From Alphaproteobacteria bacterium (GTDB lineage: Bacteria > Pseudomonadota > Alphaproteobacteria > RF32 > CAG-239), in NCBI GenBank assembly GCA_017939155.1, contig JAGAZZ010000044.1, positions 92,344 to 156,343 of the forward strand: a stretch of DNA of 64,000 nucleotides. Direction: 5' to 3'. Both the position numbers and the translations under genes were made by a program. Shown one piece after another: positions 1 through 55,452 of this stretch; within the stretch, counting starts at the first letter, position 1; every line of letters begins with the position of its first letter. A model generated the notes under the pieces. The model searched no databases, had not been told where the DNA came from, and was given only the letters and a program-made list of their open reading frames with translations.

Positions 1-500
1 ACTACATTTTATCTGTTGTGGAGGCAGAACACGATAAATTTATAAAAATCCCCAGTGAAAGGACGGATAATATAGTTTATCTGGCAAACATTTTAAAAGC
101 GATGGGAGTGGTGCCAAATAATATGAAGATAACACCGGGTACAACAGCGCATTTATACGATGTTCTTGGTAATATGTTCTATATTCGGACAATGCCGCCA
201 AAAATAGAGTTTGCAATGTATCTGAATGCAGGTAAAGATGGTGTATTCAATACCGTTAACATAGCAAAAGAGATTTGTCTTCCTTTATATATGAACGTTT
301 TGTTTCCCAGAGCTCAAAACTTATATGCGACATATCTGATTATGAACCAAGGTTCAACAACCACAAAATACGTCTTTTACGGAGAAAAATCGTGTTCTGC
401 AAAGAGAAAATGTATCAAAAATATAACCATTAACGAGGTGCTTGAAATGTGCAATGCCTGTGAAAATGATAAATATTGCCGCATAGGAGCTAAGTGGTAA
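1..500 (+). CDS. Cys-rich pilin-like family protein, probably 5'-partial at the window edge; paralog of 33330..33983
   Basis: The frame is open from nt 3, so the true start is probably upstream and GTG at 18 is only the ORF-track start. C-terminal motif KRKCIKNITINEVLEMCNACENDKYC aligns with NRKCIKDMSLKDIYEMCSICASDNRYC of the 33330 gene. Confidence 0.45.
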   Translation, partial: YILSVVEAEHDKFIKIPSERTDNIVYLANILKAMGVVPNNMKITPGTTAHLYDVLGNMFYIRTMPPKIEFAMYLNAGKDGVFNTVNIAKEICLPLYMNVLFPRAQNLYATYLIMNQGSTTTKYVFYGEKSCSAKRKCIKNITINEVLEMCNACENDKYCRIGAKW

Positions 501-3797: not shown

Positions 3798-6700
3798 ATG
3801 AATAACTTTATGTTTGCAGGCAAGTCTATGAAAATAAAAAGAAAAATATTTGTAATGGCAGTAGCCGTTTTGTCCTCTTTAGCCTTTACTGTGCAAGCTC
3901 AAGGCGAAAGAATAACGGTTGCTGAGGCGTATTATGAACTTGCCAAACAAAATAATATGGGAAAAATCGAAAGGTTGCAGCATCGCGGCTATTCAATAGA
4001 AAGTGTTGATAAAAATGGCAATAACGCTGTTTGCTTAGCTGTGATAAATGAGAACAAACCCGCCTATAAACTATTGGTGTCTTATGGGGCAAAGCCAAAA
4101 CCGGTATGTCTTAATAATGTTTCAAAAAGGGTATATCAACGTTTCTTTGGTGCACTGCCGGAGCAAAATACCGCTAAAGTTTATATCCCCGATGAACCTT
4201 ATATGATAGGTGCCGCTGTTCTTGGTGCCGGCGCTGTTGCCGCGGCTTTTGCTCTAAAAGGAAGCACGGGCGGAGGCAGTGGAGATTCCGGCGATGATAA
4301 TCCGGATACTCCAAATCCGCCGACACCTGAACAGCCGGATTGTCCGGCCAACAGTACATATAATACTCAAACCAAGCTCTGCGAGTGTTGGAGTGGTTTT
4401 GGTCATTTTGGCGATGAAAAAAACTGCTATGCAACAGTTGTAAATTGTAAACACCAAAACAAAGATAAATGTAATGAATGTAATTCAGGCTTCTATTTAA
4501 GCGATAATGTCTGCTATAACCCTATCTTAAATTGTAAAACTCAAACTGGTCGGATTTGTAACGAGTGTAATAGCGGTTATGGCACGCATAACGGCGATAA
4601 AACAAAATGTTATCAAAATATAGAAAATTGCAGAATCCAACAGGAAAACAAATGTAGCCAATGTAATTCAGGCTACGGTACGTTTGGGGATGACAGCAAA
4701 TGTTATAAAAAAATAGAAAATTGTGATATTCAGATACAAGATACGTGTAGGCAGTGTGTGTCGGGATATTCTACGCTGGATTCGCCAACGGCAGATTTCT
4801 GTTATAAAGAAAATCCCTGCGCAGCCTATCCGAATACTTTTCCCAAACGCGATGGCGAAAATGTTGAGTGTATCTGTAATTATAATAAGGGATACACAGG
4901 AGAAAAAGAAAATTGCACGCAAACCGATGGCGGAAATTATCAGGAAGGTCAAGGTAATATGGAAGAGTGGAATAACTTAAACGAACTTTATTGCTCTTCA
5001 CACGGCAGATATAACATATCAACCTCAGCAGAACAACCCAAATGTATCTGCTTTGATGGGTACACAGGCGACTCTTGCGAGCGTTGCGATGAACCAAAAT
5101 ATAAAGATTTCGGCGGTTCGGGAATTTGTTACTTAAATTTGGATTGTGAAAATACCAGAGGTCCCGAGTATACTCAAGCCCAAAATAAATGTATTTGCAA
5201 AGACGGTTATTTTTCACATAATGGTAATTGCAGTCCTGTTGTTGATTGCACCGTTATCGGCGCCAACTATACGCAGGTCGAACCTGGACCGGACCCTGAA
5301 AAAGCTTGTGCTTGTAAACCCAATTTTGATGAAAATTGCGAAAACTGTTTGCCGGGTTTTGTTTTAGATAATGGCTCTTGCATCCGAACGGAATATATAT
5401 GTGATGAAAAGTGGACGGGTGAAAACTGTGATGTTTGTCCGTCACAGTATGAAATAACAGTAGACAGTAATGGTGAACATTGTGGTCAAAAATGTGCTTT
5501 AAACAGAGAGCCGATAGAAGATAATCCGGAATGTGAAAATTGTGCGCCGGGGTACGAATGGAGCAATTTAGATAAAACTTGTGTTGTGACGGAGTGTTCG
5601 TCCGGTGTTGATGGTTATATTAAAACCGAAGACGGAGCTTGCGTTTGTGATACGGCTAACGGCTGGGCAATGTCCCCGTTGGGGCGTTGCGAAAAAAAAG
5701 GACCGGATTATGTCGGCTTAAAAGACTCAAACATAAATAACAGTACCATAACGATGGAAAACGACGGCTACAGAGATGAATTTCGCGATGTCTACGGAAT
5801 GAAACCCGTGTTGGCTGAAAACGAAGACGGCACGGCAGAATATTATGATAATGTCTACAACGCCTTGGCTTCTTCTGGGCAAAAGCAAACCGCCGAAATT
5901 AATATTACAAATAAAAATACCGGCGCCAACTCTGTTTATGGCATATATTCTCCGTCAGTTATCTATAATGCAGGGGCAATCAGTAGCCAAAAGGCGCAAA
6001 CGGAAGCTACCGGAACTATCAAAATAAATGATACAAATACTTCATCAGCATTATACGGAATTTATAATGATACCTCTGATAGCATTTATAATGCTTTTGC
6101 CTATACAAATGCTTCGGGAACACTGACAGACCCATCGCAAAGCACAGCAAATGCCTCAATACTCTTAAATAAATATAATACCTCATCCGAAAATGGAACA
6201 ATTGTCAATTTGGGTAATATAACAGGTATTGAAGGGGCAGGAAATATTTATAATGCCTACGCAAACACAACGGGAGGCTCAGCCGCAAATGTTAGCGCTG
6301 ACGGATTAATTTCAATGACACATGAAGGTTCAGGAACAGTAATCGGAATAAGGGGAGATAATGCTCAAGCTCGTGTCAACAATGCTCTGTCATATTTAGA
6401 TTCGGCTGTTTCTAACGCTGTCTCAAGCGGAAAAATTATATTATCGGGAAGTGGAGATGTTTATGGTATCCATGCTAACGGAAGTGTAGCAAATAGTGAA
6501 ACACAATTTAATAAAAGTTATAATGAAGTTAATGGATTCCATAAAGATTTTCGCGCCGAAGGCTTGATTGACGTAACAACCAGCTCAGACAGAAAAGCCG
6601 CCTATGGTATTTATGTCCCGGAAGGCGGGGAAAATAAGGTTGATGTTTATAATGCTATCGGCTACAAAAGCACCGGACAAATAAAAGCCACCAATACCGG

Positions 6701-9425
6701 AGGGGGAAGTGTATTCGGTATATGGAACGGAGCGGCAACCTATATGGGTGAAAACGAAGATAAAGAAATCGCAAGAATTTATAATAATACCTATAACGCA
6801 TTTCGTTCGTCCGCTCGCTATGGAGAAGACAATGTTGCATCAGAAGGCAAGATAGAACTGGATATTTCCGGTCGTAGCACTGCTCTTCAAAATGCAGTAG
6901 GGTTATATGCGGCAGGTGATGCGTTTAATGCGTATGCTCAATCAGGGTCAGATGTTAAATTGGAATCTTTGGGAAGTATTGTCATAAATGATGCAAGCTT
7001 GACATCAAACATCGTTCTAAAAGGTATGGATGGAGAAGGGGCAACTGTTGCCAATGCTTATAGTGTTGCGCCTAAAAATACAATTAATAATAACACCTCA
7101 ACCGTCGTAAAAGGAAATATTGATATAAATGTCACCTCGCCTAAAGATGGTTCAATCGGCAGAGCCTATGGTATTTATAACGCAAAATCGGTACCGATGA
7201 TAGCAACGATATATAATGCGGCTCTTGTGAATAATACCAATACGGTTGAAGGAAAAATAAATATTACCACGCCAAAAGACCGAGATACATTTAGCAAAAT
7301 GTACGGAATTTATAGTTCAACCTATGAAAGTAACGGGGGGAATAGTGCCGAGGCACAGCCTAAAATCGTATATAACGCATATTACGGCAATGATGATAAA
7401 ACTCAAACCAAAGGTTCGGTACTTGGTGAAATTAATATAACAGCCGGAGGTAAAAGCGCGGCAAGTGATGCTGAATATTATGGTATTTATCTTGATGGCG
7501 GTACAAACGGTTTTAAGGAAAGTGCGGCATACAATGCTTATTCAAGTAATGATGCGGCAGATGTTACAGGAAAAATTAACGTTGATGTCATAGGGGGAAC
7601 CAATAGCGGAACGGCAGCCGGTATGTATGGTAAAAACGCCCGCTTATACAACGATGGCACAAAATCTACAATTACGGTAAAAGCTTCGCAATATGGCACC
7701 AATGCGTATGGTATGTTGGGTGATAGTTCATATCTCTATAATAATGCGGTTATTAATACGGAAAATAAAAATTATGCCGCTTATGGAATGAGTGCATTAA
7801 ACGGAGATGCTATAAACGATGTCAACGGCGTAATTAATGTTAACGGCAAAACGGCAAGCTATGGTATATATGTTAAATCCGATTCGGATGTCACATCAGC
7901 TAAAGCCGTAAACAAAGGCATAATAAATGTTCTAGGGGAAGGTGAAAATTATGGAATTTATGCCTCTGGTGCAAACGCAACCGTTGAAAATAAAGGTACC
8001 ATCACAATTAACGGTCAAACGTGCGATGGTAATGATTGTAATGGCGGTAAAGCAATATGGTTAGATAATGGTGCAAAGTTGGTCAATAGCGGCGTAACAG
8101 AAAGTTCGTCAAACTTAGACTTTGCAGCAATGGGCGGCGAGGTTATTCTTGATAAAGGCGGAAAATTTATAGCAAAAGAAAAAATAAGCGGAAATCTCAA
8201 TATTTCGCAAAATACAATAAAAGATACTTTTGCTACAAAAAAAATTCTGCACGATGCCATTACGGCAGAGAATATTGAAGATTTAAACGTTAATTCGCTT
8301 TCATATCTTTACGACGCTAAGCTTGTAGATAATCAAAATGGTAGTTATGACGCAGAAATGTCATTAAAAGATTTGACAACAATAATGGATAAAAGTCAGG
8401 CAAATTATCTCAACAAAAATTTCCAAAACAAAAAGAATCAGGAACTCTTTAATATCTTAACGTCTGCACGAAATGCGCAAGAAGAACAAAAAATAAGAAC
8501 TTCGGTTATGGGAACGGATATGCTCCCCAACATCGCCGAAGAAGAGCTTAAAGTGCAAAGAAGTCTTGATAAAACAATGATGGATGAGTTATTTAAAAAT
8601 AAAAATGAAGATATGCGCAAAATAGTAGGCGGAAATTTAGAATATTTAGGGCAGGATGACCGCGGCACGCTAACCGGATATGACTTGACCTCAGAGAGTA
8701 TGTACGCCCTCTATGACCAAAAGCTTGATAACAATTATCGCCTAGGTTTGGGTTTGAGCTTCACGCATACCGATACTGACTATAATAATGACTCCAGTCG
8801 TAAAAACTTTATGGTTCAAGGCTATGTCCCGTTGACTTATACAAATAATAACGGTTTAACTGCCGTAACAATGGCGCGGCTCGGCTATGCCGACGGAGAT
8901 TACAGCCGCCGAGGTTATAACCGCACCTACAAAGCCGATACCACCGAAATAACCTACGGCTTGTTAAATGAGGTTCGCTATACCATAGATTTGGGACTTG
9001 TTAATTTAACTCCGTTTGCCAGACTAAATGCTGTCGGTTGGTATATGGATTCAGCCAATGAAGATGGCGATGATTTAGCCTTAGAATTAGCCTCAAACCA
9101 TGTTTTCTCATTAGAAAGCGCATTAGGCTTGTATCTTGATAAAGAAATTGAATTTAGCGATGTAAGTAAGCTCTCAACCATCTTGGGAATAGGGTGGTAT
9201 CATGAGTTCGCCGACCCATATCGCGGTTTTGATGCAACCCACAAAGCAAGTCGGTATTCATATAGGTTGAGGGATAAAGGTCACTTAAACTCGCGCAATC
9301 GCGGTATCTTATCTGCCAAAGTTAATTACGATTATAAAGATTTTTCAATCTATGGCGAATTAATGCAATACTTGGAAGACGGACACCCGCTAAAAGTCGA
9401 AGGCGGCCTGAAATATCGTTTTTGA
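3798..9425 (+). CDS. Giant type Va autotransporter with an ankyrin repeat, Cys-rich/EGF-like modules, a YGIY-repeat passenger and a C-terminal beta-barrel
   Basis: N-terminal signal peptide (alternative start M at 3828). ANK-like DKNGNNAVCLAVINENKPAYKLLVSYGAKP. Tandem C..CNSGYG..C modules and C.C..GYTG..C EGF-like modules. Passenger with reiterated YGIY...YNA motifs. C-terminus LGLGLSF...KYRF is typical of an autotransporter translocator. Confidence 0.85.
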   Translation: MNNFMFAGKSMKIKRKIFVMAVAVLSSLAFTVQAQGERITVAEAYYELAKQNNMGKIERLQHRGYSIESVDKNGNNAVCLAVINENKPAYKLLVSYGAKPKPVCLNNVSKRVYQRFFGALPEQNTAKVYIPDEPYMIGAAVLGAGAVAAAFALKGSTGGGSGDSGDDNPDTPNPPTPEQPDCPANSTYNTQTKLCECWSGFGHFGDEKNCYATVVNCKHQNKDKCNECNSGFYLSDNVCYNPILNCKTQTGRICNECNSGYGTHNGDKTKCYQNIENCRIQQENKCSQCNSGYGTFGDDSKCYKKIENCDIQIQDTCRQCVSGYSTLDSPTADFCYKENPCAAYPNTFPKRDGENVECICNYNKGYTGEKENCTQTDGGNYQEGQGNMEEWNNLNELYCSSHGRYNISTSAEQPKCICFDGYTGDSCERCDEPKYKDFGGSGICYLNLDCENTRGPEYTQAQNKCICKDGYFSHNGNCSPVVDCTVIGANYTQVEPGPDPEKACACKPNFDENCENCLPGFVLDNGSCIRTEYICDEKWTGENCDVCPSQYEITVDSNGEHCGQKCALNREPIEDNPECENCAPGYEWSNLDKTCVVTECSSGVDGYIKTEDGACVCDTANGWAMSPLGRCEKKGPDYVGLKDSNINNSTITMENDGYRDEFRDVYGMKPVLAENEDGTAEYYDNVYNALASSGQKQTAEINITNKNTGANSVYGIYSPSVIYNAGAISSQKAQTEATGTIKINDTNTSSALYGIYNDTSDSIYNAFAYTNASGTLTDPSQSTANASILLNKYNTSSENGTIVNLGNITGIEGAGNIYNAYANTTGGSAANVSADGLISMTHEGSGTVIGIRGDNAQARVNNALSYLDSAVSNAVSSGKIILSGSGDVYGIHANGSVANSETQFNKSYNEVNGFHKDFRAEGLIDVTTSSDRKAAYGIYVPEGGENKVDVYNAIGYKSTGQIKATNTGGGSVFGIWNGAATYMGENEDKEIARIYNNTYNAFRSSARYGEDNVASEGKIELDISGRSTALQNAVGLYAAGDAFNAYAQSGSDVKLESLGSIVINDASLTSNIVLKGMDGEGATVANAYSVAPKNTINNNTSTVVKGNIDINVTSPKDGSIGRAYGIYNAKSVPMIATIYNAALVNNTNTVEGKINITTPKDRDTFSKMYGIYSSTYESNGGNSAEAQPKIVYNAYYGNDDKTQTKGSVLGEINITAGGKSAASDAEYYGIYLDGGTNGFKESAAYNAYSSNDAADVTGKINVDVIGGTNSGTAAGMYGKNARLYNDGTKSTITVKASQYGTNAYGMLGDSSYLYNNAVINTENKNYAAYGMSALNGDAINDVNGVINVNGKTASYGIYVKSDSDVTSAKAVNKGIINVLGEGENYGIYASGANATVENKGTITINGQTCDGNDCNGGKAIWLDNGAKLVNSGVTESSSNLDFAAMGGEVILDKGGKFIAKEKISGNLNISQNTIKDTFATKKILHDAITAENIEDLNVNSLSYLYDAKLVDNQNGSYDAEMSLKDLTTIMDKSQANYLNKNFQNKKNQELFNILTSARNAQEEQKIRTSVMGTDMLPNIAEEELKVQRSLDKTMMDELFKNKNEDMRKIVGGNLEYLGQDDRGTLTGYDLTSESMYALYDQKLDNNYRLGLGLSFTHTDTDYNNDSSRKNFMVQGYVPLTYTNNNGLTAVTMARLGYADGDYSRRGYNRTYKADTTEITYGLLNEVRYTIDLGLVNLTPFARLNAVGWYMDSANEDGDDLALELASNHVFSLESALGLYLDKEIEFSDVSKLSTILGIGWYHEFADPYRGFDATHKASRYSYRLRDKGHLNSRNRGILSAKVNYDYKDFSIYGELMQYLEDGHPLKVEGGLKYRF

Positions 9426-16166: not shown

Positions 16167-19100
16167 ATGAAATACACCGCTGCCGCCCTCGGATGTCTAA
16201 ACGCAAGATACCGTGCCGTCCTCAAAAAATGCCTCCTCATCAACCTCGGCTTCTTCGCTCTTACTCATCCGATGATTTGTCACGCGGCAGATACGATTAT
16301 TACGGAAGATGTGACCCTAAATGCAGATGACCTAACCGCAGATGAGGGTTCAAAAATTATTAATCAAGGTTCAACAATTAATCTCACCGGCGGAACAATA
16401 AATACTGAAATTAGCCACCGAAAAGTTGATGGTAAAGATGGAGAAATTAATATTGTTTCAGAAAGCAATGTATCCAATGCAGTTGGTGACCCAACTGGAA
16501 AAAGTGGGCCTTTCATTGGTGGAGGAATACTTAAGGTCGAACAGCAGGCTGAGTTTACAAATAACGGATTTATGGGTGGAAGTAGCATAAATAACTATGG
16601 GACAATAGTAAATAATGGATATTGGAATAGCTATCAGAAACTTGATTACATAAACCATACTGGAGCAACGCTAATTAATGAAGAAAATGCATATCTATAT
16701 AGTGGACCACGCAACGAGGGAATTATAAAAAATAAAGGTAAGTGGGCGAGTATGGCATATAATGATGCAGGAGGGGAATTTGAAAATAGTGGTACAATCA
16801 CATGGCAGACATATAATTATCAGGGGGCAAAGTTTACCAATACTGATACAGGAAATGCAAACGGTATATATAACTACGGCTCTGGAGAAAATGAAGGAAC
16901 AATAAGCTATGTGGAAAATGGAGGAATGAGCACTAGCGATAAACTATTAAATAAAGAAGCCTCTTTTTCTAATAGCGGAACAATAGAAAGCAATGTTCAA
17001 AATTATGGAGGAACTTTCAAAAACACAGGTATCATAAAAGAAGGGATTAATAATTCTGATAAAGTAATAATAGAAGGAGGCGTTGTTGAACAAGGAATTA
17101 AGTCAAATACAGGAACTATCCAAATATCCGGTGGTACTATAAAAGGTTATACATACAATTCCGGCACAATGGATATAACGGGAGGGGAACTCCTTGGAAC
17201 TTTAAGCACTTATAGCAATAAAGCAAATGTTACAACATCGGCAGATTTTCTCAAAGGTGATATTTATAATTCTTATGGTGGCACGATAAATCTAACCGGT
17301 GGTACTTTATCCCAGCAATTACAAGGAAGCGGAGGTATTTTAAATATCACCGGTGATGTCAAAAATGCAAGCAATATTAACCAACAAGAGCTCAATATCA
17401 TCGAAAATGCCACACTAACCTCAGACGCGGAAGCCATAGTTGTTGCCGATAACACTATCACAAATGATGGTACACTAGACCTCACCGGTGGCACCAACAC
17501 CAACGCCATCACAGGCGAGGGCACGGTTACAGTTTCCGGCGACGTTACCAACAATGCGGCAATAGACCAAAACAATGTAAATATAGAATCTGGCAAATCC
17601 TTAGCTAATAATAACACCATAACGGCTGATGTCACAAACAATGGCAGTTTGGACAATAATAACGGAACAATTAACGGTATTGTAACTAACAATTCTTCAA
17701 TTTACGGTGCTGTCGGTACAATCAATGGTAAATTAATCAATAATGCTGACGCAATTATTAATGATATGTTTCAAAGTTCAAAACTCAATGGCAATCTTGA
17801 AAATGCCGGAACAGTAGATATGTCGGGTATTATCACCGGTGATGTCACAAACAAAGACGGTGGTTTTATCAAATATATCAAACAAGTAGATGGTAATGTA
17901 ACAAATGAAACCGGCGGAACAATTAAGACTATAGGTACTCTGAATGGAGATTTGCTAAATGAAACCGGCGCATTTTTAACGGATGAGCAAGGTAGCGTAT
18001 ATAGTAATATAAAAGGAACTCTGACAAATAATGGCACGATTGAGATGAAGAATTCATACAATGCAATAAATATAGGCAATAGTGAAACCAAAACCGGAGA
18101 TTTTATTAATAACGGAATTGCTAAATTTATACAAGGAACGATTTATGGAAATCTTATTAATGGTGAAAATACCGTTATTGAAGCAACGTATGGAAGTAAT
18201 GTTTATGGCGGATTTGATAATAAGGGAACATATACGGGCGGTCTGAATATCACGGGGGACGACCTCACTAAAAATTATATCAACAATGAAGGCACAATAA
18301 AACTTGATATGTATGGCAACACTTCTTTAAAAGGAACTATTAATAATGCCGAAGGAGCGATTATCGGTGTAAAAAATGAAAACTATCAAGGACAAAATGG
18401 TGGATATAGTGTCAATAATGCCATCATAAATAATAGCGGTACGATTAGCGGTATCGGGTCAGGAAATAATATCCAAGTCAAAAATGAAACAACAGGTGAG
18501 ATAGAATTCGGTGCAGGCAGTCGCTCAGGCACAATAAATAACAAAGGTACTATAAAAATATACGATGGAATATGGACAGTTTCCGAAGATGGAATTCAAA
18601 ATTCTAATAAATTTACCATACAGAATGGTGGTGTTTATGGTAGTGGAAAATTTGTAAATAAAGATGGTGGTCAGCTCAATATCTTATCAACATGGGGTCC
18701 TGATTTTCGAGTCGCTCTCGAAAACGCCGGAACAGTCAATAACGCAGGTACAATAACAGGCCCAAGCGTTACTAATTCTGGCACCATAAATAATACCGGA
18801 ATAATAGCATCTCAAACCACAAACTCTGGCACAATCAACAACACCAGTCAACTTGTAGGAACAACCACAAACTCCGGCACAATCAACAACACCGGTCAAA
18901 TTCAAAGTCAGACCACAAATTCCGGCACAATTATAAATAAAGCCGGCAGCACACAGACAAACACAACCCGCAACGAATCGACCGGCACCATTATTATGGA
19001 AGCAGATAGCCACATGAGCGGAACGTGGTATAATAAAGGGAAAATAGAAAACCATAGTAACCAAAATCAAAATATGTATTTTGAAAACCAAGAAGGCGGA

Positions 19101-21953
19101 AATTTCCAAAACTTTGGCACGATAGCCGGAGGTTCTGCCCTTTATAATCGCGCAGGCGCTACCTTAACAAATGAAACAACCGGCGTAATTGATGCTGGCT
19201 ATATGGAAAATAGCGGTACGTTAAACAATGCCGGCACAATAAAAAGGACTGTTTCTAACATCGGAATATTAGAAAACACCGGTCTAATCGAACCATCAGC
19301 CGGAAATGCTGTACTAAACCAATCCACCGGTATATTAACAAACAAAGGTACCATAAATACCCATGTTTCAAATAATGGTAAATTAGAAAACATCGGCAAA
19401 ATCGCTTATAATGCAACCGAAAGCTCAAAAAGCGCTATTGTAAACTATGCCACCGGCACGCTCACCAACAAAGGCACTATCGGCTATTTGAGCGAAGAAG
19501 AGGGCATATTAAGCCAGTTTGTAAATATGGGCACAGCGACAAACGAAGAAAACGGCATAATTTCAGCCGAGCAAATCATTAATAATAAAGATGCTGAGTT
19601 GACCTCTTTAGCCGACAAGCTTATCACCGCTGATAACACCATCACAAACGCTGGAACCCTGACTTTGACCTCCGGCACCAACGCGAATCGCCTTGTTAAC
19701 ACAACAACTTCCGAGGGCGAGGTCATCAAAGGCACGCTTAATATCGCAGGCAACGTCACTAACAACGCAACAATCGAGCAAAAAGCCTTAAACGTGAACA
19801 AACAGGCAATATTGACCAATGCGGAAAACATTAACGTTGAAAGTGTCACCAACTCCGGCACAATAAACAACGACTCCGGAACCCTCACCACTAACGAACT
19901 CGTTAACCAAGAGGGCGCAGAACTCATCACTTCTGCTGAAAATATCATCACGGCTGACAACACAATCCAAAACGCCGGAACCGTAACCCTCACCGGTGGC
20001 ACCAACGCCAACTATATCACCGGCACAGGTAGTGTTGCTATCACCGGCAACGTCACCAACAACGCAGAAGTGACGCAAAAAGCAGTTAACATCGCTCAAA
20101 CCGGCGCCTTAACAACGTCCGCTGACAGTTTGCACCTCACCGATTCGCTTGCCAACGACGGCGCGTTAACCTTGACCTCCGGAACCAACGCCAACACCAT
20201 TTCCGGCACCGGCTCAACCACTATCGCAGGCAATATCACCAACAACGCAGAAGTGACGCAAAAAGCCGTTAACATCGCTCAAATCGGCGCCTTAACAACG
20301 TCCGCAGATACACTGCACCTCACCGATTCGCTGACCAACGACGGCACGTTAACCTTGACTTCCGGCACAAACACCAACACCATCACCGGTCTGGGCAAAA
20401 TCGCTATTTTAGATAATTTTGACCTCGGCACCGGCACAATTTCCGGCAACACGGTTGAAGTTGAAAGCGGTACCTTAAAAATGAGCCAAAATAACAATTT
20501 TGACAACACCGCAACTCTAAAGATTAATCAAGGGGTAACTTTTGACCTCAATGACCATACGGCAACCCTCAAAGAAGCAAATTTTGCCACCGGTTCAGTC
20601 TTAAAGCTGAATGTAAACGCACTTAATAATCATGGAACGCTCAACGCCAACACCATAACCGTTGAAAATGGCGCAACCTTAAAAGCCACCTTGGCTCAAG
20701 GTCTGGTCGGTTATGGCAAAACGGCTGAAATTAACCTCTTAAATGCTGAAAATAAAGACTTTAATAACTTTAACGATGAGTTTGACAACAATATGTATCG
20801 TTTTGAAAAGTCCGGCAAAAATGGGGCGTATGCCATAAGCTTGGTTAAAACGGCAGCCGAAGTGGCAAAAGAAACCGGCGCTTCTAACACACAGGCTGAA
20901 ACGGCAAAAGCCTGGGTTGACGGAGAGCGCTTTAATAACGAAAAAGCTCAAGAAGTTGCCGACAAATTGGCAGACTTAGCACAAAACAATCAAGCCGAGT
21001 TTGTCGAAACGCTTGAAACGATAGCTCCAACCCAAGCCCCGGTCGTCCACGATATGACAACCGATGTCAACGACCGTATCCTCCAAGCAACCGTTGACCA
21101 CCTCAAATACGGAGCAGCCGCTAATATGTATGGTATGTCCTCCGGCGATGAGTTCAACGAGGTTTCAGTTTGGGGTAAAACCTATTTGAGCCAAACCGAC
21201 CGCGAAACAACTTCAGGCATTCAGGGCTTTAAGGTAAAATCTCACGGCGTTGTCGGCGGATTTGATAAAAAACTGAACCAAAATACCAAGTTAGGCTTAG
21301 GTTTGCAATACGACAACGCTGATATTTCAAGCCCCAATCGTAAAACCGATGTAGACAGCTTGACCGGCTTTATCTATGGTCAATATCGCCCGGATAATCG
21401 TTTTATCAACTGGCTCGCTTCATACGGTAAAGCTGATTATGATGAAAGCAAAATCGCGCTAAATCAAAAATTTGATGCAAAATATGACGCCAAAACATAC
21501 GCTTTGCAGGGGATAGCGGGATATGATTTGCACTTCAACGATAATAAAATCACGCCGGAAATCGGAATGCGCTATTACAATATCCACCGTAGCACTTATA
21601 AAGATGGCTTAGGTCAACGCATAAAAAGTCAGGATATGGACATCTTAAGAGCCGCCGCCGGTGTTTCTTTTGCCAGAGATTTTTGCTTTGGTATGTGTAA
21701 AATCACACCGGAAGTTTATTTAGGTTTAACCTATGATATTATCGCAGATAATGACAAAGCTGTCGTTATGCTCGACAACGGCGCAAGCTATACCGTAAAC
21801 GGCAAACGCTTAAATCGTCTGGGCTATGAAGCCGCAGTCGGTCTGACGGCGTCCTTGAACGATAGTATTGAAATCAGCCTCGGCTATAACGGAACTTATC
21901 GCAAAAACTACGATAACCACATGGGACTCTTTAATGTCAAATATAAGTTCTAA
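16167..21953 (+). CDS. Giant type Va autotransporter with extended signal peptide, repetitive Gly/Thr/Asn-rich passenger and C-terminal beta-barrel
   Basis: ~41-aa extended signal peptide (MKYTAAALGCLNARYRAVLKKCLLINLGFFALTHPMICHAAD). TNSGTINNT 16-aa repeats. ~60-aa TLTLTSGTNAN..GNVTNNA..QKA.NI repeats. C-terminus LGLGLQYD...FNVKYKF is a translocator domain. Confidence 0.85.
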   Translation: MKYTAAALGCLNARYRAVLKKCLLINLGFFALTHPMICHAADTIITEDVTLNADDLTADEGSKIINQGSTINLTGGTINTEISHRKVDGKDGEINIVSESNVSNAVGDPTGKSGPFIGGGILKVEQQAEFTNNGFMGGSSINNYGTIVNNGYWNSYQKLDYINHTGATLINEENAYLYSGPRNEGIIKNKGKWASMAYNDAGGEFENSGTITWQTYNYQGAKFTNTDTGNANGIYNYGSGENEGTISYVENGGMSTSDKLLNKEASFSNSGTIESNVQNYGGTFKNTGIIKEGINNSDKVIIEGGVVEQGIKSNTGTIQISGGTIKGYTYNSGTMDITGGELLGTLSTYSNKANVTTSADFLKGDIYNSYGGTINLTGGTLSQQLQGSGGILNITGDVKNASNINQQELNIIENATLTSDAEAIVVADNTITNDGTLDLTGGTNTNAITGEGTVTVSGDVTNNAAIDQNNVNIESGKSLANNNTITADVTNNGSLDNNNGTINGIVTNNSSIYGAVGTINGKLINNADAIINDMFQSSKLNGNLENAGTVDMSGIITGDVTNKDGGFIKYIKQVDGNVTNETGGTIKTIGTLNGDLLNETGAFLTDEQGSVYSNIKGTLTNNGTIEMKNSYNAINIGNSETKTGDFINNGIAKFIQGTIYGNLINGENTVIEATYGSNVYGGFDNKGTYTGGLNITGDDLTKNYINNEGTIKLDMYGNTSLKGTINNAEGAIIGVKNENYQGQNGGYSVNNAIINNSGTISGIGSGNNIQVKNETTGEIEFGAGSRSGTINNKGTIKIYDGIWTVSEDGIQNSNKFTIQNGGVYGSGKFVNKDGGQLNILSTWGPDFRVALENAGTVNNAGTITGPSVTNSGTINNTGIIASQTTNSGTINNTSQLVGTTTNSGTINNTGQIQSQTTNSGTIINKAGSTQTNTTRNESTGTIIMEADSHMSGTWYNKGKIENHSNQNQNMYFENQEGGNFQNFGTIAGGSALYNRAGATLTNETTGVIDAGYMENSGTLNNAGTIKRTVSNIGILENTGLIEPSAGNAVLNQSTGILTNKGTINTHVSNNGKLENIGKIAYNATESSKSAIVNYATGTLTNKGTIGYLSEEEGILSQFVNMGTATNEENGIISAEQIINNKDAELTSLADKLITADNTITNAGTLTLTSGTNANRLVNTTTSEGEVIKGTLNIAGNVTNNATIEQKALNVNKQAILTNAENINVESVTNSGTINNDSGTLTTNELVNQEGAELITSAENIITADNTIQNAGTVTLTGGTNANYITGTGSVAITGNVTNNAEVTQKAVNIAQTGALTTSADSLHLTDSLANDGALTLTSGTNANTISGTGSTTIAGNITNNAEVTQKAVNIAQIGALTTSADTLHLTDSLTNDGTLTLTSGTNTNTITGLGKIAILDNFDLGTGTISGNTVEVESGTLKMSQNNNFDNTATLKINQGVTFDLNDHTATLKEANFATGSVLKLNVNALNNHGTLNANTITVENGATLKATLAQGLVGYGKTAEINLLNAENKDFNNFNDEFDNNMYRFEKSGKNGAYAISLVKTAAEVAKETGASNTQAETAKAWVDGERFNNEKAQEVADKLADLAQNNQAEFVETLETIAPTQAPVVHDMTTDVNDRILQATVDHLKYGAAANMYGMSSGDEFNEVSVWGKTYLSQTDRETTSGIQGFKVKSHGVVGGFDKKLNQNTKLGLGLQYDNADISSPNRKTDVDSLTGFIYGQYRPDNRFINWLASYGKADYDESKIALNQKFDAKYDAKTYALQGIAGYDLHFNDNKITPEIGMRYYNIHRSTYKDGLGQRIKSQDMDILRAAAGVSFARDFCFGMCKITPEVYLGLTYDIIADNDKAVVMLDNGASYTVNGKRLNRLGYEAAVGLTASLNDSIEISLGYNGTYRKNYDNHMGLFNVKYKF
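20052..20411 (+). repeat. In-frame near-identical tandem repeat, 180-bp unit (~2 copies plus diverged flanking copies), inside the autotransporter passenger
   Basis: AACAACGCAGAAGTGACGCAAAAAGC recurs at 20058 and 20238, and the surrounding ~180 bp are nearly identical. Confidence 0.8.
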
Positions 21954-33064: not shown

Positions 33065-33329
33065 AAAAATGATAAAAAAACTTTGACATTTTGAATTTTC
33101 TTAATATCATCTAAGCGGATATGGCAATAGCCTGTCTGGGGCTTAGTAACCTCTTCAAATACGTCAATGTGCTAGACGTTAATTTTGCACGCTTTCTGGT
33201 CAGAGACTGGAAGGCGGCAAAATACGCTATTTTAGTCAATATGTCGCGCTATGTTATTTGAGTAGTTACTAACTTCCAGTCGCCTTATCGGCGGCTTTTT
33301 TATTATATTTGTCAAAAGGAATTGGTAAT

Positions 33330-33983
33330 ATGAAAATAAATGATTTAGGTCGCTCGATGATTGAAATGTTAGGCGTCTTGGCAATTGTCGGTATTCTATC
33401 GGTAGGAGCAATTTCAGGCTATTCTAAAGCAATGTTTAAATATAAGCTGTTAAAAACAGCAGAAGAGTATACAACATTGTTTCAAGAAGTTTTGCCATAT
33501 AAAAAAGAATTGGAGGCATTAAGGGGAGCAAAAGCGGGAGAAGGAGATTATTATTGGCTGACACCTTTGTTTGATGATATGCAGCTTGTGCCAAAGACGT
33601 GGTCAAGAACTGTAATTCCTTCAAAAGGACAAGAAGGTTTTATTGACCGTTTGGGAAATTATGTTTGGCCATTTATTCGTATGGAAAATAATAAGCTAAA
33701 TTTCAATATATTAATTACGGATTCAGATACCTCAGTCACAATTTGTGAAACGTTATATCGGGAGGTTATAATGCAATTCAGCGATATTTTAAGCTATACG
33801 GCAACAGTAAAAGATAAAAACGGAGGCTCAGAAACAACAAGCGATAAATATTATTACGGGAATATGTATTGTAACGGGAAAAATAGAAAATGTATTAAAG
33901 ATATGTCCCTAAAAGATATTTATGAAATGTGCAGTATTTGCGCTAGTGATAATAGATATTGTGCTTTAATAATAGATTTTTAA
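33330..33983 (+). CDS. Type-IV-pilin-like (prepilin-type N-terminus) protein with Cys-rich C-terminal domain
   Basis: N-terminus G-RSMIE-MLGVLAIVGILSVGAISGY has Glu at +5 after Gly followed by a hydrophobic helix, i.e. a class III signal/prepilin pattern. C-terminal Cys motif is shared with ORF 1..500. ATG 33330 with AAAGGA RBS is preferred over TTG 33309. Confidence 0.6.
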   Translation: MKINDLGRSMIEMLGVLAIVGILSVGAISGYSKAMFKYKLLKTAEEYTTLFQEVLPYKKELEALRGAKAGEGDYYWLTPLFDDMQLVPKTWSRTVIPSKGQEGFIDRLGNYVWPFIRMENNKLNFNILITDSDTSVTICETLYREVIMQFSDILSYTATVKDKNGGSETTSDKYYYGNMYCNGKNRKCIKDMSLKDIYEMCSICASDNRYCALIIDF

Positions 33984-34069: not shown

Positions 34070-34156
34070 GCTCCGGTGGCGAAATTGGTAGACGCGCATG
34101 CTTCAGGTGCATGTTGCCTCAGGCAGTGGAAGTTCAAGTCTTCTCCGGAGCACCAG
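34070..34156 (+). tRNA. tRNA-Leu (anticodon CAG)
   Basis: Manual fold: acceptor GCTCCGG/CCGGAGC, D-arm GCG..CGC, anticodon stem CATGC/GCATG with loop TTCAGGT giving anticodon CAG, long variable arm, T-arm GGAAG-TTCAAGT-CTTCT, ACCA 3' end; 87 nt. Confidence 0.85.
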
Positions 34157-34168
34157 TTTCTTCAAATT

Positions 34169-34190
34169 CCCCGTTTCGGGGATTTTTTTT
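34169..34190 (+). terminator. Intrinsic terminator after tRNA-Leu
   Basis: CCCCG-TTT-CGGGG hairpin followed by T8. Confidence 0.7.
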
Positions 34191-54981: not shown

Positions 54982-55452
54982 ATGAATAATACATACGCAA
55001 CAAAGCCGTCTGATATTACGAGAAAATGGTATGTTGTTGACGCAACAGACGTTGTATTGGGCCGTCTTGCCGCTCAGGTAGCAATTTTGCTCCGTGGTAA
55101 ACACAAGCCTTATTTCACACCAAACTTGGATTGTGGTGATTATGTTGTTGTCATCAATGCCGACAAAGTAAAATTAACCGGCAAAAAATTGACAGATAAA
55201 AAATATTTCAAACACACCGGCTGGATTGGCGGTATTAAAGAAACGACTGCCGGCAAAATCTTAAACAGCCGTTTTCCTGAAAGAGTTGTTGAGAAAGCTG
55301 TTGAACGTATGATTTCCCGCAATCCGATGGGACGTCAGCAAATGACAAAATTAAAAGTATATGCCGGTGAAAATCATCCGCATACTGCTCAAAATCCTGA
55401 AGTTCTGGACATCGCTTCCAAGAACCCGAAAAATAAAAGGAGTGAACTGTAA
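54982..55452 (+). CDS. rplM: 50S ribosomal protein L13
   Basis: KW.VVDA...LGRLA..VA..L.GK L13 signature. Confidence 0.95.

Follow-up and report, generated by a model that had tools for sequence, protein, structure and literature searches.

A pilin-like multigene family with a Cys-rich head and a structured leader RNA in uncultured gut Alphaproteobacteria

Two open reading frames (ORFs), designated ORF-A and ORF-B, in a 64,000-nt stretch of an Alphaproteobacteria bacterium genome (GTDB lineage RF32; CAG-239; assembly GCA_017939155.1, contig JAGAZZ010000044.1, positions 92,344 to 156,343), hereafter the window, belong to a very large, lineage-specific, uncharacterised protein family of uncultured gut Alphaproteobacteria. 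Judged from sequence and predicted structure, the overall N-terminal architecture of these proteins looks pilin-like, and their head appears to be a new domain. ORF-B and many of its relatives are preceded by a structured leader, a well-supported cis-regulatory RNA that is new to RNA family databases. Two things are new here, a multigene family of pilin-like proteins whose head is novel and whose residue at position +1 is atypical, and a cis-regulatory RNA; the best reading of the proteins is as a repertoire of conditionally expressed type-IV-filament subunits or anchored adhesins. The gut lineage, of GTDB order RF32, is low in GC (40.4% in the window), and the two ORFs and their Cys modules are located as follows.

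3..500, + strand: ORF-A, a family member cut by the window edge, with 165 codons plus the stop (498-500) visible (translation, BLASTP, family hidden Markov model [HMM], orthologues).
393..479, + strand: C-terminal Cys module of ORF-A, C-x5-C-x12-C-x2-C-x5-C, with five of the six Cys that are conserved in the family; C92, at 276..278, is the remaining one.
33330..33983, + strand: ORF-B, a complete family member of 217 aa, with a leader peptide M1-G7 (33330-33350), a predicted cleavage site before R8, an invariant segment R8-M35, a long helix to residue 67, and a variable head.
33870..33962, + strand: C-terminal Cys module of ORF-B, C181-x6-C188-x12-C201-x2-C204-x6-C211; the sixth Cys is C139, at 33744..33746 (alignments A1, A2, and A8).

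The two proteins align by BLASTP with 30% identity over 146 residues (E 6e-12), a span that covers the whole visible ORF-A, and the family HMM, which scores ORF-B at 259 bits and ORF-A at 104 bits, finds exactly two members in the window. Likewise, a six-frame scan of the whole window returns the motif C-[ILV]-K-x(6,14)-E-[ML]-C-x2-C in these two ORFs only, and no prepilin-like N-terminus elsewhere. The original prediction, made from the letters of the window, had described a two-member family alike in its last ~35 residues. The homology is real and the C-terminal similarity significant in alignment, but the description was too narrow on both counts, as the similarity extends over ~146 residues and the family, two-membered only inside the window, is huge.

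A search of 5.8 billion proteins returned 1667 relatives of ORF-B at E<=1e-3, and a profile search of 1.84 billion cluster representatives (50% identity clusters) returned 5774, 4176, and 671 clusters at E<=1e-3, 1e-10, and 1e-30, respectively. Among GTDB species genomes there are at least 564 confirmed stretches, nearly all in gut or faecal records titled Alphaproteobacteria. With the HMM, 137 distinct family genes were identified on 73 contigs in 79 fetched loci. The genes are single and dispersed among housekeeping genes, with at least 30 copies in one related metagenome-assembled genome (MAG), CAKQRZ01, where 30 of the 137 were found; two other MAGs have 16 and 11. No precomputed Pfam domain is present on the 120 ORF-B relatives listed, and the few relatives with names, from MAGs labelled Alphaproteobacteria bacterium or Acetobacter sp., go under "type II secretion system protein," "GspH family protein," or "hypothetical." A literature search on the family, or on pili of these gut Alphaproteobacteria, found nothing relevant.

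The part of ORF-A that lies outside the window can be read from its orthologues. Three proteins (P0121-P0123; 212-216 aa) are 81-95% identical to ORF-A and place exactly 50 of its codons beyond the window edge, in agreement with the truncation that had been predicted. They start MNLKTNENG/RSMIEMLGVLAIVGILS...EEYN (opening residues MNLKTNENGRSMIEMLGVLAIVGILS; here and below the slash marks the predicted cleavage site) and then run into the window's first residues, YILSVVEAEH; DNA alignment with the orthologue contigs likewise puts the window start exactly 150 nt into the gene. The 50 missing codons correspond to a leader peptide and hydrophobic helix, and the leader is of the same type as that of ORF-B, whose N-terminus reads MKINDLG/RSMIEMLGVLAIVGILS (opening residues MKINDLGRSMIEMLGVLAIVGILS). 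The orthologue contigs (loci L080 and L081) are syntenic with the window, carrying in order RuvX, a gene of 121 aa, the family gene, IleRS (opposite strand), a giant autotransporter, RimP, and NusA. Upstream extension of ORF-A had been set beforehand as a check on its missing N-terminus, and as a class-III-type leader is present in these syntenic, 95%-identical orthologues, this main test of the original prediction favours the pilin-like reading.

At L081:1-338 (- strand), beyond RuvX and an SLT-domain gene, there is a further leader and family gene (MKLYSLNQNG/RSMIEMLG...) that runs off the contig end. This region is syntenic with that ~2.6 kb upstream of the window start, and by this comparison a third family copy probably lies just outside the window in the same genome.

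To describe the protein, conservation was taken from alignments of 28 and 67 members, and the leader and +1 residue were inspected in 73 genes. The leader peptide has 4-10 residues in 65 of the 73 and ends in Gly (G7 of ORF-B, at least 90% conserved in alignments A1 and A2). The nearly invariant segment that follows, RSMIEMLGVLAIVGILSVGGIAGYSKAM, places Glu at +5, with E12 and L14-S24 (ORF-B numbering) at least 90% conserved. The remainder of the protein is 30-40% identical, save for P88, D106, G177, and six family-wide Cys (C139, C181, C188, C201, C204, and C211), five of which fall within the last 37 residues. In ORF-A, C92, C131, and C137 are invariant, and C150, C153, and C159 are at least 90% conserved (alignments A1 and A4). 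When the family (A2) was compared by hhalign with canonical type IVa pilins, represented by five sequences, Gly-1 and Glu+5 came into register (probability 77%, E 2.1e-5, 32 columns). There are also weak matches to models of prepilin-peptidase-dependent proteins, and marginal profile matches in the PDB, to fimbrial protein and geopilin chains (E about 0.05), which cover the helix only. A Tad/Flp or TadE/F type is not indicated, as RSMIEM follows the Gly, there is no Tyr at +6, and no TadE (PF07811) match is obtained even at E<=1.

The AF2 model of ORF-B (pLDDT 85.5, pTM 0.79) has a continuous helix at residues 8-67, a sheet, another helix, and, at the C-terminus, a helix-strand unit. A Foldseek search with this full-length model has as its top match the type IVb pilin PilS of S. 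Typhi (3fhu_A; prob 0.99, E 4.8e-3, TM 0.37/0.51), which is the single meaningful PDB match, the others being kinase noise. A predicted 60-residue N-terminal helix packed on a beta-sheet, with a type IVb pilin as sole meaningful match, is consistent with the pilin fold that the original prediction implied. The fragment of ORF-A in the window, which comprises the head without the N-terminal helix, was modelled with a pLDDT of 90.1. For the Cys module, Pfam and NCBIfam gave no known domain.

The N-terminal segment is constant in protein and not in DNA. Among paralogues of one MAG, the 26 N-terminal codons share ~77% DNA identity, and degenerate codons for the same amino acid are identical in only ~40% of cases. 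As synonymous sites are scrambled, gene conversion was rejected as the cause of the invariant N-terminus, and its constancy indicates purifying selection on the protein. This in turn argues for a shared partner, whether peptidase, platform, or filament core.

ORF-B is preceded by a promoter and a structured leader RNA, the elements of which are listed below.

33083..33110, + strand: sigma-70-type promoter of ORF-B, TTGACA-16 nt-TATCAT, matching the consensus at 11 of 12 positions and better than any other site in the region.
33111..33332, + strand: structured 5' leader RNA, ending at the ATG (covariance model R1, RNAalifold, covariation, minimum free energy [MFE]).
33117-33137, + strand: leader hairpin P0.
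33138-33141, + strand: GGGG.
33143-33149 and 33266-33272, + strand: loop strand and 3' strand of the long-range helix of the leader, the most telling part of its structure, 100% paired, with two to four pair types at each of the three central pairs.
33150-33153, + strand: CCTC.
33161-33179, + strand: leader element P2.
33191-33215, + strand: leader hairpin P3.
33271-33281, + strand: anti-Shine-Dalgarno-like AACTTCCAGTC.
33278..33301, + strand: intrinsic-terminator-like hairpin and T-run, ending 29 nt before the start codon (terminator scan).
33315..33325, + strand: Shine-Dalgarno region (AAAGGAATTGG), read directly from the sequences.

The leader, ~210 nt in length, is shared by ORF-B, the ORF-A orthologues, and many other relatives, and the -35 and -10 columns of the promoter are conserved in an alignment of 21 upstream regions of relatives (A5). 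Its structure was assessed on 19 leaders, aligned with structure-blind MAFFT, and on a second set of 38 sequences (A6 and A7). For the 19 leaders, RNAalifold gives 40 pairs, 27 with compensatory changes; 94.7% of cells are paired, versus 76.6% when shuffled, and covariation is 0.636 versus 0.291 (0 of 500 shuffles), with slid controls at 0.06-0.12. For the 38 sequences, pairing is 95% and 33 of the 40 pairs are compensatory. The terminator helix (helix 8) has compensatory pairs at six of seven positions on A6 and at all seven on A7, and the window leader has an MFE of -70.5 kcal/mol (z -5.3). An alternative helix, between the 3' arm of P3 (33205-33215) and AACTTCCAGTC (33271-33281), overlaps the 5' arm of the terminator; it is 88.9% paired, with five compensatory pairs and covariation of 0.408 versus 0.158 (0 of 500 shuffles). 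Two mutually exclusive covarying folds are the hallmark of the expression platform of an attenuator or riboswitch; the genes around the leader give no clue to a ligand. In addition, the Shine-Dalgarno region reads GGAAGTT in most relatives and is complementary, by eye, to the leader's AACTTCC, with which it may pair. Leader-peptide attenuation was considered, as the window leader can be read as a short ATG-started ORF, and dropped, as the aligned relatives, read by eye, have no ATG there.

Covariance model R1 finds a single copy in the window (33111-33332, 176 bits, E 3e-43), 38 matches at E<=0.01 in the first fetched loci (30 at >=100 bits), and 37 at E<=0.001 in an independent metagenome sample (36 at >=100 bits). 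Over both sets, 67 matches keep within the E-value limits. The window copy apart, 65 reach 100 bits; in 61 of them the leader stops at a family-gene ATG, counting one (L021:10715) that reaches the end of the fetched stretch with the gene beyond it. Three weaker matches (44-54 bits; L011, L050, and L157:5778) also end at a family-gene ATG, and the leaders of the ORF-A orthologues lie at L080:995-1209 and L081:2741-2954. The same leader (130-150 bits) stands before a lipoprotein gene (L090:738-950, + strand) and a gene for a 64-aa Cys-rich secreted peptide (L164:334-548, - strand), while weak matches (25-40 bits) precede genes for 84-98-aa HTH (XRE-like) proteins (L077:4761-4957, L067:3607-3804, and L034:5298-5493), so that the leader regulon may exceed the pilin-like family. 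One strong match runs off its contig, and at L010:428-658 (- strand) a leader of 174 bits is followed only by a 5-codon ORF, and is either an orphan leader or the remnant of a decayed gene. A scan of the window with Rfam 15 recovered two tRNAs only and no family at gathering score for the leader, the best sub-threshold match being DUF3800-IX (25.7 versus 36.8 bits), to the terminator part only; Rfam likewise gave nothing for the leader of an ORF-A orthologue.

Taking protein and leader together, we judge it slightly better than an even chance that the family is a repertoire of type-IV-filament-type subunits that are cleaved after Gly, handled by one shared machinery via the invariant helix, equipped with variable disulfide-rich heads, and gated in expression by the leader. 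A prepilin peptidase would cut after the Gly, and the invariant helix would then serve as a common handle by which a shared machinery pulls the proteins out of the inner membrane, to polymerise into a type IV filament or to sit at its tip or base. The candidate motor would be an orphan T2SSE-family ATPase conserved in the lineage. The variable heads, presumably stabilised by disulfides, may form a repertoire of adhesive or antigenic surfaces, and the proteins may be secreted or act as adhesins. By flipping between terminator and antiterminator folds on a signal, the leader would make expression of the repertoire conditional.

Several observations weigh against this reading. The N-terminal segment scores below both curated thresholds, at 13.9 bits against a cut-off of 21.2 for PF07963 (N_methyl) and 11.9 against 16.3 for TIGR02532. 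The residue at +1 is Arg in all 73 genes inspected (GRSMIEM in 44, GRSMVEM in 28, GRSMIEI in 1), and an invariant Arg in place of Phe or Met is unusual for substrates of a PilD-type peptidase/methylase. The prepilin-type N-terminus that had been assigned to ORF-B stands as to Gly-1, Glu+5, and the hydrophobic stretch, which align in register, but not as to model scores or the +1 residue. The structural match to a type IVb pilin is modest and partly due to the long helix, and when the ORF-A head alone is compared with the PDB by Foldseek there is no structural relative (best E 0.013, TM <=0.3, Cas7/Csy3 noise only). Nor does a profile search find a PDB sequence relative of the Cys module (E>0.3), in line with the earlier remark that it was not recognised from any characterised pilin. 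Moreover, the steps from expression and cleavage through export to polymerisation, the signal to which the leader responds, and the pairing of the Cys in disulfides are inferred.

The gene neighbourhood weighs in the same direction. Pfam scans of 42 window proteins, all housekeeping or unrelated, yielded no pilus or type II secretion system (T2SS) genes, and no prepilin peptidase, platform protein, secretin, or assembly ATPase was found by such scans in the 64-kb window; two further products stand outside the scanned set, IleRS, recognised from its sequence and from Pfam marks on orthologues, and ORF 62198..62917, read by eye. The window genes include RimP-NusA-IF2-RbfA, MscL, FtsY, MutY, Der, ThyX, BamB, Tkt, L13/S9, and SHMT, with XseA and BacA directly upstream of ORF-B and tRNA-Leu directly downstream. 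Among ORFs of >=150 aa in the 1.18 Mb of loci with the 137 relatives, GspE-type Walker A and A24 GxGDxK motifs were absent save in one orphan ATPase. The earlier statements that assembly genes are missing nearby and that the proteins may be orphans are thus borne out. The ATPase itself is placed as follows.

L019:18280-19233, - strand, equal to L008:19348-20301, + strand: orphan T2SSE-family ATPase (PF00437), with orthologues in L082-L085.

This lone protein of 317 aa matches PF00437 at E 2e-32, is 80-94% conserved in the lineage, and is 60% identical to versions of 400-468 aa in more distant MAGs. As a motor it has points against it: it scores 113 bits for the PilT family, where the cut-off is 319, and lies far under every equivalog cut-off, and its contexts are varied and housekeeping, with no partner genes beside it or its orthologues. 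In CAKQRZ01 it adjoins a downstream FxLYD-domain gene and a convergent family member, whereas in other MAGs it lies between TilS and rplM-rpsI; it is not present at the corresponding window site, upstream of L13/S9 at 54982.

The explanation that survives best next to that of filament subunits is that the pilin-type N-terminus is a signal-anchor or sorting tag only. The proteins would then be bitopic envelope proteins, with or without peptidase processing, whose variable disulfide-rich heads bind in the periplasm or on the surface without forming a filament. Tagged binding modules of this kind are the current view of how the large prepilin-like expansions in other phyla, and archaeal binding proteins with pilin signals, function. 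The dispersal of the genes, never linked to assembly genes, fits this explanation, as do the presence of at least 30 very divergent heads per genome, a head without relative among solved pilins, and the atypical Arg at +1. So does the occurrence of the leader before a lipoprotein (L090) and a Cys-rich peptide (L164), which suggests that the regulon serves envelope proteins in general and not a pilus. However, the 28 near-invariant residues under purifying selection, Glu+5 included, exceed what a membrane anchor needs and fit contacts between subunits and with a machinery; the lineage does have a conserved T2SSE-family ATPase; and the predicted continuous 60-residue helix is the architecture of a filament core. 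We regard a mere tag or anchor as possible, though doubtful.

Convergence is a further explanation, whereby an ordinary transmembrane signal, uncleaved or Sec-cleaved, would belong to a lineage-specific secreted Cys-rich family unrelated to type IV filaments. It would account for the curated pilin models not being reached, the marginal PDB sequence matches, and a head unrelated to known pilins; yet Gly-1, Glu+5, and the hydrophobic stretch match canonical pilins position for position, Sec signals do not feature a charged Glu at the fifth residue of their core, and the sole meaningful structural match of the full-length model is a pilin, so that we hold it to be improbable. Least probable of all, with very little in its favour, is that these are GspH-type pseudopilins of a conventional T2SS, as suggested by the names of some relatives and a weak TIGR01708 match, since that match reaches 11.3 bits against a cut-off of 80, the names stem from generic N-terminal matches, neither the window nor the surroundings of the 137 relatives contain a gsp operon, and GspH is characterised neither by 30 or more copies in a genome nor by a head with six Cys.

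The original prediction of pilin-like proteins comes through these comparisons, on the strength of the leader in the ORF-A orthologues, the predicted fold, and the significant alignment of the two ORFs, and is limited by the size of the family, the sub-threshold scores, the Arg at +1, and the unmatched head. Going further than the subunit repertoire itself, we put forward tentatively that the leader is a new riboswitch class, or an attenuator responsive to protein or RNA, that gates dozens of dispersed pilin-like and other envelope-protein genes, and that the products of these go to a divergent type IV filament machinery, one that takes subunits with Arg at +1 and has the orphan T2SSE ATPase as its motor.

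By their upstream regions, the paralogues can be sorted into classes. A sub-family starting MRENG/RSMVE or MNTQSG/RSMVE lacks the structured leader and has upstream the sequence TTGCA-A(8-21)-N5-7-TAGAAT or TAAAAT, in which an A tract lies within a promoter-like spacer. Examples, given by start codon on the gene's strand, are L020:180 and 5860, L054:10000 and 17983, L071, L073, and L066:9994. Tract lengths are 10 (10 genes), 12 (7 genes), 11, 8, and 21, and from this arrangement the tract is a candidate slipped-strand phase switch. Length variation is slight in the consensus assemblies, and this class does not apply to the window's two genes.

Many copies carry an in-frame insert of GC-rich palindromic repeat, 30-160 codons long, that separates the ATG of the leader from G/RSMIE (L003:15221, L022:9638, L046:9589, L014:9569, L038:9431, L122:7085, and L134:6955; N-terminally extended proteins P0046-P0120). 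Recurring translations of the repeat are GLLRRYTPRNDV, LDVVRQYAALLERRVQ..., and RMYHPGSSANELTLKAKDD, and owing to these in-frame inserts gene callers give long false or odd N-termini. Contig ends show an asymmetry: 35 of the 137 family genes have <400 nt upstream, versus 2 of 137 with <400 nt downstream. That contigs break systematically just upstream of family genes points to repeated 5' regulatory sequence as the cause. A coding repeat was rejected as the cause, as synonymous sites are scrambled and the breaks sit in the leader and repeat region.

The same 64 kb encodes further surface proteins, namely two giant proteins of 1875 and 1928 aa (3798..9425 and 16167..21953, both + strand) that each end in an autotransporter beta-domain (PF03797, E 4e-27 and 4e-41). 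In the first, the passenger domain contains long EGF-like repeats rich in Cys. From the stop of ORF-B (33983) to tRNA-Leu(CAG) at 34070-34155 there is no terminator-like site; the first terminator follows the tRNA, at 34164-34185, and read-through transcripts of ORF-B could therefore include the tRNA.

Common in the guts of humans and animals, these Alphaproteobacteria lack any representative that has been cultured and characterised. With at least 30 surface-directed proteins per small genome, the family is probably central to interaction with host, mucus, phage, or neighbouring cells, and Pfam has no model for it, while its GspH names mislead. With its Arg at +1, the invariant RSMIEMLGVLAI handle puts to the test what is known of prepilin peptidase substrate rules and of filament cores. 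The leader is a directly testable orphan-riboswitch candidate, whose on/off architecture is clear and whose set of genes is defined, and also a practical marker, since assemblies break there. Together, the family HMM and the covariance model would improve the annotation of thousands of metagenomic genes.

Compared with known systems, the family is like type IV pilins, especially type IVb (PilS, PDB 3FHU), in its short leader, Gly-1, Glu+5, and ~20 hydrophobic residues, in a predicted long N-terminal helix on an antiparallel sheet, and in a mature size of ~200 residues. The +1 residue of type IVb pilins is variable, which we count as a likeness, whereas here +1 is an invariant Arg. Cys residues near the C-terminus recall the disulfide-bounded D-region of pilins. 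The differences are a leader as short as in type IVa on a protein as large as in type IVb, six conserved Cys and among them a C-x6-C-x12-C-x2-C-x6-C module that solved pilins lack, a head that alone is unmatched, and at least 30 scattered copies in place of a pil-, tcp-, or bfp-type operon. GspH (TIGR01708) shares the N-terminal prepilin-type segment and a length of about 170-220 aa, and differs from the family in the latter's high copy number and Cys-rich head.

Similar in genomic arrangement are the DUF1559/H-X9-DG proteins of Planctomycetota and the pilin-like genes of Elusimicrobium and Lentisphaerota, which number tens to hundreds of dispersed paralogues per genome, mostly unlinked to assembly genes, with a conserved prepilin-type N-terminus and divergent C-terminal domains. 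The family resembles these expansions in dispersal and N-terminus but belongs to a different phylum, has RSMIE rather than FTLIE, matches neither DUF1559 nor another Pfam family, and, unlike DUF1559-type expansions, has a dedicated structured RNA leader on many copies. Neisseria undergoes pilE/pilS antigenic variation, and fimbrial and surface-protein genes elsewhere undergo phase variation through promoter tracts. The family recalls such systems in having numerous pilin-type sequences in a genome, constant at the N-terminus and variable in the head, and in the A-tract sub-families of related MAGs; unlike Neisseria pilS, it consists of complete genes with their own promoters rather than silent cassettes and shows no sign of recent gene conversion. 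For the leader, pilA1 of C. difficile offers a precedent of a pilin gene under riboswitch control: there a c-di-GMP-II riboswitch sets a terminator/read-through decision directly upstream of a type IV pilin gene (PMC6366702). The leader described here is unrelated to that RNA and differs in having no match to c-di-GMP-I or -II, in its five-stem domain closed by a long-range helix, and in standing before dozens of paralogues rather than one operon.

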